From Eledone cirrhosa (taxonomy: Eukaryota): a stretch of 64,000 nucleotides of DNA. The stretch is taken from the NCBI GenBank assembly GCA_964016885.1, contig OZ024745.1:127224001-127288000 (forward strand). The letters run 5' to 3'. Every line of letters begins with the position of its first letter. The stretch's first letter is position 1. Made by a program: the position numbers and the translations under genes. The notes under the pieces are model-generated. The model worked only from the letters and a program-made list of their open reading frames with translations. It did not search any database and was not told the DNA's origin. Shown in pieces: positions 1,708 to 60,356 of this stretch.

Positions 1708-4700
1708 GTAGGTGAATTCTCCATAAAACTGCATCTTCTTTACACACATACTTACACATGCTCCAGCATGGCCTCAGCCGGATGGCTGGAACAGTTAAAA
1801 GAGTAAAAGAGTATACAGACATACATGCACACTCAGATATACATATGAATATACATATATATAACCTTCAAAACCCGACGTACCCAGGATTGTCAATATC
1901 GGTCGAGCGTCAGACACTATGCTTTGCGGCATAGAGTTACGGCCCTTTATAATCTGAGTTCAAATCCCACTGAGGTTAACTTTGTCTTACATCCTTACGG
2001 AGTCGATAAAATAAATTACCAATAATGCACTGGGATAATTGCTAGCGTTGTGTCAAAAGTAAAAACAAATATTGCAATACCAAATGTACCTCACATATAT
2101 ACATATAAATAAATATATATATGACCGATAAGTTTTTAAAAGCCGGTACAATGCGGTAGAAAATACAAAGGGCAAATGATAGTAAATAAAACAAAGTAAT
2201 GAAATGTTTTACTCAAGATATTTCGGAGCTAATACCCTCTTTTCAGATTCGTAATTGAAACAGTCCAAGATAAAACAAACGAACGAGTTGAGCTTTCTTC
2301 GTATTTTCTACTGCATTGTACTGGCTCTTAAAAAACTTATCAGTTATTTACTGCATATCTCACAATGCTTCATGTTAACTACACTATTCTATGCACACAC
2401 ACACACACAGATATAGATAGATAGATAGATAGATAGATAGATAGATAGATAGATAGATAGATAGATAATTGAGAAAACATAAGAGAAACACAAACCTAAA
2501 CACAAAAACAATTCCCGCTTATCGGCTGTCTTATGTGGGCCGCTGATGTTTCGACCGCATTAAAGACAGTCCATCTCACCACAGTGCATTGATAACTAAG
2601 AGGAATAGTTATCCGGGGGGGACAAAAACGAAGATAACGACAAAAAAAAAGAAACCAAAAAAAGAAAAACATACCGATAGAGAAGGGGGAATACGAGACA
2701 GTAGTACATGTAAGTTTCAGTAACCAGGGGAAGAGGAGAAGTTAATAAAGAGACAGAACATAAGTCCTGAACCCGTACTAACAGCACGAGGGAGAGCATA
2801 TAACCTTCAAATCCCGATGTATCATTACCCACTGTCTCTTTGTAAGAAGAGTGAAACAATTTGAAGAAATGTTATTGTATTACCGAACGTATCGCTATCC
2901 AGGATTTAAAGAAATGTAGTGACCTACATTCCGCGGGCTCACATACATTCTCCGTGCGTTATTTGGCTCAGCCCAGCCAATGACCGCCAGCGGAGGAGAA
3001 TGTATTTCTACGCGCCCTGCAGGAAAAATTCCCGCGTCGATTCGAGAAACCGCTCTCTTGCATCCTGACCACGCTAACATTATCTCGAAACTGCGGTGTT
3101 CGGATAGAGAGAAGGCCTTAATGTCCAGCAGTCGCATACTCTGCCGATAATGCCAATCCACCATCCTACTGATTTCTTTAAATAACAATCCAATTCGGGA
3201 ATATTTTTTTCACACGTCGTTGCCAACATGTATAATTATAGTGTACGACTGTTTGTGTTTTATCCATTTTATTTGTGAATCAACGAGATCTATTTAATTG
3301 TTTCTACTTTTGGCACAAAGCCAGCAATTGCCCAGTGCATTACTGGTACTTTATTTTATCGACCCCCGTAAGGATGAAAGGCAAAGTTAACCTCGGCGGG
3401 ATTTAATAAAAGATGATCTCATCTTATATTTCATCTATCATACCAGATTCTATTGACTTTATAATTTAGGGTTTCAAGCTATAAGACTTAATAATCCATC
3501 CTAAATAAATTATATCATTCATACAGTGCATAATAAAATAGGGATGTGGTATAGAATGAAAACCTGATGTGTTAGGGGGAAACGGATGCCATATATGAAA
3601 TCAGCACCTCGAAATTAGCTAAAAGCAACAACAAAACCTAAGTCAGCAAAACGTGTGTTGACCAGTGTAATCTATCTTCATGCTATTTCCCTTAACTATA
3701 ACCAGGATTCGTCCATTTTCATCCTGTCTCTTTAATAACTGGTAGAGTCCATCTTTTTTGTACCCATTTATTACAATATGGTGGAATCTAGCCCAGCTTT
3801 AGTCGTTTTAATTGTTAATTTCTCTCAGTGATGTAGATTTGAGTTGGCAGGGAGGAAGTTCTGTCATACTTATTGACACAGCTGCGTGTCATCACTTCCT
3901 TGTTTTTACAGAAAGATTCTGATAGGTGTTGGCAATATTTCTCAATATCTGTTTATTAAACTTTATATTTACCCATCTATCAACTCCCGCGTCCCAAATA
4001 ATAGGGGTGGGTGGGGGTGGATGACGACGACGATGATGATGGTGATGATGATGACGACGGTGACGGTGATGATGATGACGATGATGATGACGATGATGAT
4101 GATGGTGATGGTGATGGTGATGATGGTGATGATGACGATGATGATGATGATGATGATGGTAATGACGACGACGACGACGATGAGGATGATGATGATATGA
4201 ATTCATCTTCAGTTTATCCCACCTCTATCTTCTCCCCCCCCCCCCCCAATACAAAATATAAAGCCCAACCACTAACCGACTTAAAATATAATCAATTTGA
4301 ACTAATTACATATTTTATTCCCAGATTAAATAACTTCCATTTCATTGTTTTACAGAACTTCCCGATTTAGTGCCAGACGTTGAAGAACTGCGACTGTCAA
4401 TGCGACTTGAAGACAAACCTCTCTATTATTTGCAGTGTGCCATGGAAGAAAATTGTCTTGCATCAGAAGCTTATGAGATTAAGGAACATGCCAGAGGTAA
4501 CGAATTCAGATAGAGTTTAAGGAGGAAGGGGTAGTGTTTATTTGTGTTGTTTTTGTTTTTGTATGTATGCATTTCTGTTACGTATACCGCAAACAGAAAT
4601 ACATGCCACATACCACATCATATATGAATATCTAAAGTCTAAAGTCTGTCTTAACACAGAAGGTTCATTTGGCCACTGCTTATCTCGGTTTTATGGCGTG

Positions 4701-7700
4701 AAGCGACTGAGAGTACAAGACTCCCCCCTGGATAGGACGCCAGTCCATCGCAGGGTTAAACCTCCAGCTATTGCTGGTACTGATTTTCAGCTGAGTATAC
4801 TGGAGCAACGTGGCCATGTGCCTCCACCACACACACACACACACACGCACACGCACACACACACACACATACACACATACATACATACATACATACATAC
4901 ATACATACATACATACATACATACATACATACATACATACATACATATATGGGGTAAAGACCCCCTGTATATTAGAATCCATACTGTTTGTAATAATACT
5001 CAATGCAAATATAAGTCCTTTGTTGATGACATGAAAATATATGGATGTGTGAAAACTTTGTATGCCGCGAAACATGGTGTCTGATGCTCTACTGATTCTG
5101 CCAATCAACCGCCCTAGCGCGAACTAATAATTGTTTCTACTTTTGGCCTAAGGCAGCAATTACCCAGTGCATTACTGGTACTTTATTATATCGACCTCGT
5201 AAGGATGAAAGGCAAAGTTAACCTCGGCGGGATTTGAACTCAGAATGGAAAGGGCCGTAACTCTATGCGTCAAAGCATGGTGCCCGACCCTCCACCGATA
5301 CTGCCAAATAACAATACATATGTACACTATATATCTACTTAATCCTCTCCAATCCCAAAACTGTAACTGGCACTCAGCTGGACAGCTACTGCTTGCGCAT
5401 TGGTGTTTCCCTGGGGCTCGGCCTCCGCCGTGTGAACCTCACAAATGCTGCTGCGGTATCATCGAGGATCCTTTCGGTCTCCACTCTCTGTCATGCCATT
5501 ACAGTGCTGGTCGCCACTCACGCCATGCTGCTCTCAACGAGATCATAAAGCATGGCCAGGGTGGCGCAGACTTCCCTTCCAAGTGGGGCTGGACAGAGGG
5601 GACGGCAAAAGACCAGACGGCATGACAATGTTCCCGTTCCGCGAGGAAGGCCTCTCACCAATGATGTCACATACTGTGACACCTATTCAAATGACAACTT
5701 GGCGCGTTCGGTTATCAGCCCAGGCTCTGCTGGCCGCCAAGCCGAAGAGGGTAAACTGTCCAAGTATCAGCCGCCCTCTGATAGGTTTGTGGTAGAGCCT
5801 GCAGCAGTGGAGACTTCCGACATTCTTAATACCCGGACCACATCTCTACTCACTGCTATCAGGGTGGAGTTGGCCGACCGAAGGTACGAGCCCCGTGAGG
5901 TGGAGTGGCTGTTTCATTGTGTCTCCCTCACCGTCCTCCGAGGCAATGCATTCTCTATCCTATCGGCTGGGACCCAAAAGCGGAGGACATGTTAGTTGGT
6001 AGCGGGAGATTCTCGTTCGGACGTCACTTCTAGAACTAAAGTATATTTACATTTAAATGAAGTAATTCCGTCGGAAAGGTCCAGAAAAAGAGTGTTCTAT
6101 GTAGGTTACAGAGCGTATTAGTTATGTAATAAACAACATAAGATAATTATATCCTTTACCAGTGGTTTCTTGAAAGCAAACAAATCTGCTTTCAGTCGTC
6201 AGAATGAAAAAATCCTGGTGTTTTTATTGAATGTGGATTTGAAAACAAAAATATAAGAAATATGAAAGTGAGGCTGAAGGAAGAAGAAAAAAGATAATAA
6301 ATAAAAAAGTGTGTGTACACACACACACACACACACATAAACACACACACATAAACACATATATGTATATATATATATATATATATATATATACATACAT
6401 AATTATAAAAATAAATAAACGAATATAATGTATATACTAAAGTAAGCAGTCACATCACCTTACAAAGACAAAAAACATATAATTATCTTATGTTGTTTAT
6501 TACATAACTATATTTACATTTATACAACTGTGGACCTCAGATAACTCTACTTCAACTGTAACGAAACCTCTGCCTCCGAAACAACGGGGAAATGTCTCAC
6601 GAAGAAAGACGTAAAAACCTAGGAATTACAACTTTAGAAGAGAGAAGACAAAAGAGAGACATTGTAGAAGTATTTAAAACTAGAATTTTTGTCCATACAC
6701 TCACGCGTATGTGTATGTGTTGTGTGTGTGCGTGTGTGTATGTGCATTTGCATACATTTCTAAGTATGAGTATATAAATATAAACGCGTAAATACAGACA
6801 CACAAAAATACACTCTCACAGACTTACATTCACACAAACACACAGATACATTTTCACAATCACACACAGCATAGTTTTTTCACCATCCCCTCCCTTCCTT
6901 TTACACACACATACATTCACGCAGGCAGCAGACGTAAAGAGAGAGGAGTAGTGTAAGGTAGTCAAACTACTCCTCTCTCTTTACGTGTTGTGACAAAATT
7001 GTAGAAATTTATATATAGATGGTGAAACAATTTGAAAAAGTATATATTGTATTAGTATAGAGTAGTGTAGTTAATATGAAGCGTTGTGAGATGTATAGTA
7101 AATATATTAGTAAATATATTAGTACATTATTCCAGAAATATTTTAATCTCAGAGGTCACAATTATACATTTCATAAGAAACAATGCTCTCTCTCTCTCTC
7201 TCTTTTTTTCTTTTTTTTTTTTTCTTAAAGAGTTATTAGTGAATGGAATGGTTTGCCAGGTTATGTAGTAAACATCACAACAGTACATGATTTAAAAGAT
7301 AAATATGACATATGAGATGAATGAATAGAATGAAATACATTTGATGAGGAGTAGAGGAAAGCATTAAACAGTGCAGAATGAGAAAATGTTTGAATCGTAA
7401 AGTCTCAGCTGTTTACGAGATTTTACGAGATAGCTTTGCGTATTTTCAGTGTGAATAAAATCAGCTTTCTTTCTCCTTTTGAGTTTTTGCTGTCATTTCC
7501 TAGAGACAGACAGAAACAAGTTTATAGTTTTATACACCGTCCCTAAAGTTTAACGGAAGCTTTGCTCTCTCTTTCTCTCTCTCTCTCTCTCTCTCTCTCT
7601 ATATATATATATATATATATATATATATATATATATATATACCGTTTTATACATGTGTTGCTTCTAGAAACGTGTGTGTGTGTGTGTGTGTGTAACTAAA

Positions 7701-60170: not shown

Positions 60171-60217
60171 CATATATATATACATACATACATATATATA
60201 TATATATGTGTAGAAGA

Positions 60218-60356
60218 CATATTTAATTTGTTGGAAATCCAACAAATGTAGATATTTACAACTGATTCAAAGCACTCGACAGATTTCTGGAGTAAGTATT
60301 CAATGATATTAAATAAATGGAAACTATATATAGTTTCCATTTATTTAATATCATTG
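60218..60356. mobile_element. Sibling of the 17.5-kb palindromic element lacking the hammerhead centre
   Basis: Same leader (atttaatttgttgg..ccaacaa..actgat..aaagcactc..ctggagtaa), then a perfect 56-bp palindrome at 60301-60356, then (TA)n. Confidence 0.7.

Follow-up and report, generated by a model that had tools for sequence, protein, structure and literature searches.

Palindromic elements in the window

The window, a 64,000-nucleotide stretch of the Eledone cirrhosa genome (assembly GCA_964016885.1, contig OZ024745.1, positions 127,224,001 to 127,288,000), contains five inverted repeats, at 2122, 6119, 17608, 21207 and 23222 (Table 1). All five had been noticed in an earlier sequence-only reading, and the arms, described there as unrelated to each other, indeed gave no arm-to-arm match in a self-comparison of the window. 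Each palindrome represents a different high-copy family, here named A to E. The self-comparison also revealed a shorter second copy of the 17608 family at 60172-60332, with 82% similarity. A hammerhead ribozyme (HHR) motif, which had been claimed for every element, is found in all five palindromes, although the second family C insertion is too truncated to hold one. An inverted-repeat finder run on the window was swamped by (TA)n.

Table 1. Features of families A to E in the window (TSD, target-site duplication; positions count from the first letter of the window).
Family	Feature	Position	Strand
A	Palindrome arms	2118-2170/2297-2350	
A	Inverted, tail-less 5'-truncated pLTR copy, holds HHR	2122-2296	-
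A	HHR, decayed in this copy, core CUGAAAA	2213-2250	-
A	Forward 3'-end stub, ~47-nt tail (2346-2392), adjoins (CA)n/(GATA)n	2297-2392	+
B	TSD, left copy, 14 bp	6042-6055	
B	Forward 3' end: microsatellite-rich 3' UTR, HHR, pLTR end, ~63-nt tail (6056-6118)	6056-6476	-
B	Palindrome arms	6119-6152/6477-6510	
B	HHR: intact core, 8-bp stem II, near-palindromic stem III, site GUA	6150-6209	-
B	Short inverted tail-less pLTR stub	6477-6508	+
B	TSD, right copy	6509-6522	
C	Forward 3' end, HHR (17652-17712), 93-nt tail (17515-17607)	17515-17712	-
C	Palindrome	17608-17814	
C	Inverted tail-less pLTR, second HHR (17711-17771, +)	17713-17814	+
C	Second insertion: tail, pLTR end, short inverted arm (~60330-60353), HHR gone, in (TA)n	60209-60353	-
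D	Forward 3' end, truncated inside HHR, ~72-nt tail (21135-21206)	21135-21300	-
D	Palindrome	21207-21466	
D	Inverted tail-less copy, holds HHR	21301-21466	+
D	HHR: extended stem II; stem III damaged in this copy	21329-21412	+
E	Inverted tail-less copy, holds HHR	23222-23502	-
E	Palindrome	23222-23671	
E	HHR	23400-23443	-
E	Forward 3'-end stub, tail from 23672, adjoins (TA)n	23503-23728	+

First-look counts put each family at 600 to 2,956 candidates, and family A numbers well over a thousand copies. In all families the 3' end is fixed and bears a tail, the 5' ends are variable, and many copies lack any inverted arm. The copies mostly abut (TA)n, as had been stated for most elements of the window; the 6119 element does not lie in a (TA)n tract. 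At least four TA units occur within 30 nt of the tail end in 15/33 copies of A, 32/48 of B, 57/64 of C, 15/32 of D and 19/23 of E, compared to a background of 12%. The family C insertion at 17515-17814 sits in a (TA)n region of 2.6 kb. The microsatellites inside the 6119 element are part of family B's own 3' UTR.

Hammerhead motifs

The motifs have type I topology, and the HHR is part of the pLTR of every family. A strict descriptor (exact core and three stems), written after the regions had been read, matched four sites in the window and one in 12 block shuffles, in line with the expectation that the motifs exceed those of shuffled sequence. With one core mismatch allowed, the same four sites were matched, against zero to three per shuffle. 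Two of the four matches come from opposite arms of a single palindrome, and families A and D were missed by the descriptor. Among the best 150 of 275 matches in an Rfam scan of the window there was no hammerhead; these matches were mostly miRNA models on (TA)n.

Among the copies compared, cores are intact in 41/51 of B, 80/111 of C and 42/60 of D, and the window copy of B carries two substitutions in stem I. Stem covariation among copies, to which the sequence-only reading had looked as a test, is seen in B, C and E but does not rise above shuffles that ignore the relatedness of copies in A (64/500) or D (268/500). In monomer folds, B and C keep stem II, while the full three-way junction is absent in most copies. 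None of the folding z-scores is significant (best -1.97), as is expected for minimal HHRs. Any activity of the HHR would, by prediction, be that of a weak ribozyme, dimeric or protein-assisted, in full-length tandem-copy transcripts.

Links to protein-coding elements

The elements had been described as free of ORFs. This is the case for the stubs in the window, but longer copies of the same families carry ORFs, although no intact full-length copy was found among those retrieved and all ORFs are broken or partial. Long copies of families B, C and E clearly run into RT and GIY-YIG ORFs. In family B, with the 3' UTR aligned, the same GIY-YIG ORF lies upstream on the same strand as the family end in four of the eight fetched regions and in a further locus (L242); it is absent from the other four regions. 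In family C, sense ORF stretches occur in 12/24 loci, with 250 homologues, and Atlas clusters give HTH_animal+RVT_1+GIY-YIG at 0.94-0.95. A PDB profile search with the family C alignment was empty. In family E, RT and GIY-YIG are collinear upstream in up to 10/30 loci, with Pfam matches (RVT_1, E 0.003-0.014; GIY-YIG, E 1.5e-4) that score under the curated cut-offs; the C, B and A fragments matched no relevant Pfam family.

Families A and D seem tied to such ORFs less firmly, through decayed remnants. Two family A loci (L051/L058) hold YVDD and GIY-YIG remnants, and family A has up to 1 kb of common upstream sequence; a search for relatives longer than the family A fragment found none. Family D sequence stands beside an ORF remnant in L246, L255/L266, L258 and L248, among 13 loci; these few loci are decayed, and their spacers do not align with one another. 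Other nearby ORFs (GIY-YIG in L160, RT pieces in L114 and L003, and those in L198, L264 and L272) belong to other families and were not counted as links.

Relation to known elements

The link to Penelope-like elements (PLEs), minimal type I HHRs and inverted truncated pLTRs drawn in the sequence-only reading proved right, and the structures fit published PLE insertions. As far as the accessible parts of two accounts describe EN+ PLE insertions (Arkhipova et al., 2013, PMC3846280; Craig et al., 2021, PMC8557442, Fig. 2), families A to E are alike in the head-to-head inverted truncated copy, the tail at one end, strong 5' truncation and the order of RT followed by a C-terminal GIY-YIG. Target-site duplications are about 10 bp where readable, and 14 bp at family B. 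The tails, in contrast, are about 45-93 nt in A to E, compared to the 30-40 bp given in these parts for PLEs, and B and C differ in having 1.5-2 kb of non-coding sequence between ORF and HHR, microsatellite-rich in B. Further features that mark EN+ PLEs are present, namely a fixed 3' end, variable 5' truncation, an inverted pLTR, a type I HHR and a target-site duplication or AT-rich target, with the core of family A atypical.

Based on motifs, families B and C appear to be of the Hydra type. They resemble the Hydra clade, as described in the accessible text of Craig et al. (2021), in the CxCX5C linker, in CxxC/CxH around conserved E and N, in (TA)n targeting and in a canonical HHR. The natural open stretches of L175, L189, L261 and L267 show the protein motifs, with DKT in C only. 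Hydra elements are there said to be "generally" shorter than 3 kb, whereas family C reaches a length of 3.7 kb or more in L267. Compared by eye with the published Hydra-1_Obim protein (Octopus bimaculoides), the RT motifs of B and C are similar, but the published HHR stems differ from all of A to E; these would therefore be sister families rather than Hydra-1_Obim itself. In family E, the linker CTNKKCVIC (L136/L144) fits CX2-5CxxC before GIY-YIG and is thus of the Neptune/Nematis type, an assignment that covers either clade. A Naiad identity, considered for the (TA)n targets, was ruled out by the C-terminal endonuclease and the canonical HHRs.

The accessible sections of Cervera and De la Pena (2014; PMC4209133) describe dual minimal HHRs that lie on opposite strands at a spacing of 100-700 bp. 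The families resemble the metazoan PLE ribozymes described there in type I topology, a long helix II, an extra base after A9 and a short palindromic helix III, as well as in the occurrence of many sequence-unrelated families per genome, mostly as truncated copies and with some opposite-strand pairs. Unlike these, helix II of family D is extended to roughly 55 nt. HHR-bearing PLE ends with inverted pLTRs are an already published class and ordinary as such. Several families of Hydra and Neptune type, present in thousands of copies, are probably uncatalogued; literature searches gave no paper naming families A to E.

Origin of the palindromes

Each palindrome is very probably a short insertion of a different protein-coding PLE family, in which a 5'-truncated, tailed 3' end is joined head to head to a tail-less truncated copy. 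The two joined copies were likely made together, in one round of target-primed reverse transcription at AT-rich DNA. Of 50 family C copies with a tail, 40 lie next to an inverted partner, the inverted arm stops at the tail boundary in 36 of these 40, and the 40 comprise 34 distinct breakpoint pairs. The query enriches for palindromes and the set includes one duplicated locus, while 7/9 incidental copies are also palindromic. Arms differ by 3.4% within insertions and 8.5% between them (24 insertions). Because of this variety of breakpoints and this difference in divergence, the hairpin is likely formed anew at each insertion rather than spread as a unit.

In such an event, (TA)n or other AT-rich DNA would be nicked on both strands by the element's GIY-YIG domain. 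RT would initiate at a pair of fixed sites within the same RNA that are separated by one tail-length; two RT start sites account for the tail (Frangieh, 2024). Both cDNAs would stop early and then join at their 5' ends. The HHR would fall in the arm when both cDNAs pass beyond it, as in C, and in the loop when just one does, as in A, B, D and E. Without ORF and promoter, the stubs are most likely dead.

The sequence-only reading had proposed a high-copy system of non-autonomous hammerhead palindromes. This is not supported, as the families extend 5' into RT/GIY-YIG ORFs, palindrome centres vary by copy, single-armed copies are common and head-to-tail HHR repeats are rare. The different stem II sequences on a shared core, which it had described, are explained by five unrelated autonomous PLE families, each keeping its HHR. 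A narrower version, in which PLE proteins would mobilise, in trans, some short non-autonomous forms transcribed from the genomic stubs (retrozyme-like or mini-PLE derivatives), seems improbable. Short copies are far more numerous than long ones (for family C, 2,956 candidates for the end and 975 for the stretch 0.5-1.1 kb upstream), cis-sequences of the pLTR can be enough for trans mobilisation according to the accessible parts of PMC3846280, and a pLTR origin is argued for animal retrozymes in a bioRxiv abstract. However, the 5' truncation gradient is what ordinary target-primed reverse transcription would give, and breakpoints are nearly all different. Animal non-LTR retrozymes, in the parts of PMC7229834 and bioRxiv 10.64898/2026.07.22.740005 available, likewise carry a type I HHR within a short ORF-less pLTR-related unit, but they are head-to-tail tandem repeats of 150-450 bp yielding circRNAs, whereas A to E are dispersed head-to-head stubs of ORF-bearing families. 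No tandem array is found at the window sites, and same-strand HHR neighbours within 1 kb are few (1/49 loci in A, 0/60 in B, 2/89 in C, 1/62 in D and 1/39 in E), so the sample contains no retrozyme-type arrays. A look-up for RNA data sets containing family B listed none.

Another alternative takes the palindromes for MITE-like DNA transposons bounded by terminal inverted repeats (TIRs), with HHR motifs by chance, an origin suggested by ORF-less inverted repeats often flanked by TA. It is hardly credible given the unpaired family-specific tail at one end, varying centres, many single-arm copies, the largely intact cores of B, C and D, a sole readable target-site duplication of 14 bp, and long copies joining RT ORFs; symmetric fixed termini, uniform length and a short fixed duplication are lacking, the ORF linkage rules this origin out, and real TIR elements in the window (43459-44024 and 44025-44907) look different.

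The family A core and further uses

The family A ribozyme has the stem III sequence ATAT, the site AUC and mostly the core CUGAAAA, with a C3-A8 pair in 22/30 copies, U3-A8 in three and C3-G8 in one. Among the cores in the accessible sections of PMC4209133, only C3-G8 and U3-A8 are found, and a text search of the literature for a C3-A8 hammerhead core gave nothing. It is possible, though unlikely, that C3-A8 is a functional core variant not described before, in which position 7 may be expanded, or else that family A proves by natural example that PLE amplification is possible with a cleavage-dead ribozyme that keeps its fold. The variant bears on the need for HHR cleavage in vivo, and if either were true, the role of PLE hammerheads could be tested directly by comparing sister families within a single genome. 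For annotation the value of the set is modest; the stubs of these families may pass for MITEs or miRNA-like hairpins. With its hundreds of natural breakpoints, the set also offers a test of the two-start-site model of how PLEs are reverse transcribed.

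Palindromes and Hammerhead Motifs

Comparison of the window with itself recovered the inverted repeats at all five places named by the sequence-only reading, here families A to E and read as 3' ends of Penelope-like elements (PLEs), and revealed a second copy of family C (see table). In each window element, only one arm is prolonged by an unpaired, family-specific tail (~45-93 nt); its partner reaches no further than the tail boundary. Using a type I hammerhead ribozyme (HHR) descriptor that was composed after the regions had been read, and requiring an exact core plus three stems, four matches were found in the window (B, both arms of C, and E) versus one in 12 block shuffles; with one core mismatch permitted, the shuffles yield 0-3 matches. 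The HHRs of A and D were spotted by eye and then confirmed in copy alignments. An Rfam scan of the window returned no hammerhead among the best 150 of 275 matches. Helix III has few base pairs and forms a perfect or near palindrome, as in dimer-type minimal HHRs.

Repeat features of the window
Feature	Position	Remark
Family A	2122
Family A tail	7056-7102 (-)	isolated fragment
Family B	6119
Family C	17608
Family C, second copy	60209-60353	shorter
C-like family tail	~57463-57492	isolated fragment
Family D	21207
Family E	23222
Sixth PLE-type stub	44915-45056	tail and short inverted arm, truncated inside stem III
Terminal-inverted-repeat element	43459-44024	adjacent to next; TA flanks
Terminal-inverted-repeat element	44025-44907	adjacent to previous; TA flanks
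High-copy repeat	20490-21130
Minisatellite, 35 bp	35258-37141
Minisatellite, 115 bp	41953-42616
Minisatellite, 47 bp	45384-45945	from dispersed repeat
Minisatellite, 48 bp	58204-58797	from dispersed repeat

An intact core (all nine letters) is present in 41/51 B, 80/111 C, 42/60 D and 1/30 A distinct copies, in sets that contain both arms of some insertions. Of the 30 family A cores, 22 read CUGAAAA and three UUGAAAA, and C3-A8 also predominates among nine A cores of a second sample, obtained with a query without the core and partly overlapping the first. By established HHR chemistry, losing the 3-8 pair should impair cleavage. Stem covariation held for B, C and E, with double changes above all 500 shuffles, but not for A (64/500) and D (268/500), in shuffles that ignore the relatedness of copies. 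In E, 97% of stem cells pair and 25 cells are changed on both sides, these changes being located at CpG sites; slid controls scored far lower.

Copy Number, Ends and Targets

The genome around the window is 3.0 Gb, and a first look, with 40 candidates scored per search, gave 1,419 (A), 2,463 (B), 2,956 (C), 600 (D) and 2,736 (E) candidate copies. Each family has one fixed end, followed mostly by microsatellite: (TA)4 occurs within 30 nt of it in 15/33 A, 32/48 B, 57/64 C, 15/32 D and 19/23 E copies, versus a 12% background at randomly chosen positions across those loci. The opposite end is variable, from tens of bases to >1.4 kb. A 14-bp direct repeat bounds the B insertion of the window.

Formation of the Palindromes

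The palindrome is likely made anew at each insertion. An adjacent inverted partner accompanies 40 of 50 tail-bearing C copies, with 34 distinct 5'-breakpoint pairs among these palindromes and an inverted arm terminating at the tail boundary in 36, in a sample that includes one duplicated locus and is palindrome-biased since the first query was itself a palindrome; incidentally found C copies are palindromic in 7/9 cases. Across 24 insertions, C arms diverge by 3.4% within an insertion versus 8.5% between insertions, and the nearest arm is the insertion's own partner in 15. These data are consistent with a single source giving rise to two cDNAs whose truncated 5' ends were then joined, which would be why the HHR falls within an arm in C and within the loop in A, B, D and E. 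Two loci elsewhere in the genome (L007 and L009; contig G000:C1, 194.67 and 194.74 Mb) form an inverted segmental duplication with the same C insertion.

Protein-Coding Parents

The independent, non-autonomous system envisaged by the sequence-only reading is unsupported, as the families encode proteins, palindromes likely arise per insertion and same-strand HHR neighbors are rare. Long E copies extend into RT (SRYVDD), a CX4CxxC linker and a GIY-YIG domain; among 30 loci, five have an RT match and ten an endonuclease match, with Pfam matches (RVT_1, E 0.014 and 0.0034; GIY-YIG, E 1.5e-4) all scoring below curated cut-offs. Upstream of C, ~1.7 kb of T-rich non-coding sequence gives way to sense ORF stretches in 12/24 loci. 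One natural 503-aa stretch had no match in Pfam and 250 homologues, with Atlas neighbors annotated HTH_animal, RVT_1 and GIY-YIG. For B, the same-strand sequence upstream holds one GIY-YIG ORF, with an alignable UTR, in L259 (both arms), L260, L261, L263 and L242, and lacks it in four of eight regions examined for it. For A, YVDD and GIY-YIG remnants occur in L051 and L058, and up to 1 kb of upstream sequence is common to several copies; an A fragment was assigned HTH_animal at 0.96 in Atlas, and a homologue search with it was empty. The weakest link is that of D, where an ORF remnant beside one copy retrieved 13 loci, with D sequence present at the remnant's own locus and three further places. 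No intact full-length element was found among the loci retrieved.

Comparison with Known Systems

The features of A-E are real and of a known kind. Earlier work on PLEs describes an inverted truncated copy plus tail, defines the Hydra clade by CxCX5C, DKT, (TA)n and a canonical HHR, and lists Hydra-1_Obim from Octopus within it (Craig, 2021, PMC8557442); the motifs of this clade are found in B and C, but their HHR stems differ. Minimal HHRs are described as heterogeneous, numbering thousands per genome and mostly within truncated PLEs, with some paired on opposite strands at a distance of 100-700 bp (Cervera and De la Pena, 2014, PMC4209133). Retrozymes are tandem arrays (PMC7229834; bioRxiv 10.64898/2026.07.22.740005), unlike A-E loci with their scarcity of same-strand neighbors. 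PLE expansion is noted for O. vulgaris (PMC13282606). As families, A-E are probably uncatalogued: a literature search, with Repbase and Dfam outside its coverage, found no paper naming them.

What is demonstrated here is how the elements are built, that one end is constant and the other varies, their connection to ORFs, a bias in targets and one TSD. Beyond this, the literature suggests that both strands of AT-rich DNA would be nicked and that RT may start at two internal sites, which would delimit the tail. In vitro, HHR cleavage was not required for insertion and was protein-assisted (Frangieh, 2024, PMC11167929), and self-priming has been suggested for the head-to-head junction (Arkhipova, 2013, PMC3846280).

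Further Repeats and a Virus-Like Stretch

Copies of the sixth stub at other sites (28 loci) have the CUGAUGA...GAAA motif in full. L008, L017, L099, L160, L226, L242, L254 and L263 show numerous additional head-to-head palindromes and ends with HHRs, unrelated to one another and stacked in the same (TA)n tracts, which puts the number of such PLE families in the genome well above five. Introns in the PLE terminal repeat (pLTR) region are known for some PLEs. At ~860-900 of L160, ~180 nt upstream of the family C HHR, a branch-point-like word, a pyrimidine tract and CAG likely represent an intron 3' splice site in this region, judging from sequence.

The two adjacent elements have true terminal inverted repeats, and the first contains a transposase-like remnant, presumably Tc1/mariner-like. 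The ends of the high-copy repeat resemble those of DINE/Helentron-type non-autonomous elements, and its minus strand carries a hammerhead-like run near 20710-20750 with the first box altered. Elsewhere, L265:2912-6288 (contig G000:C19, ~32.059-32.062 Mb) is an endogenous parvovirus/densovirus-like stretch, in which an open frame of 622 aa includes a phospholipase-A2-like domain (E 6e-10) and is followed by Parvo_NS1 frames (E 2.5e-16).
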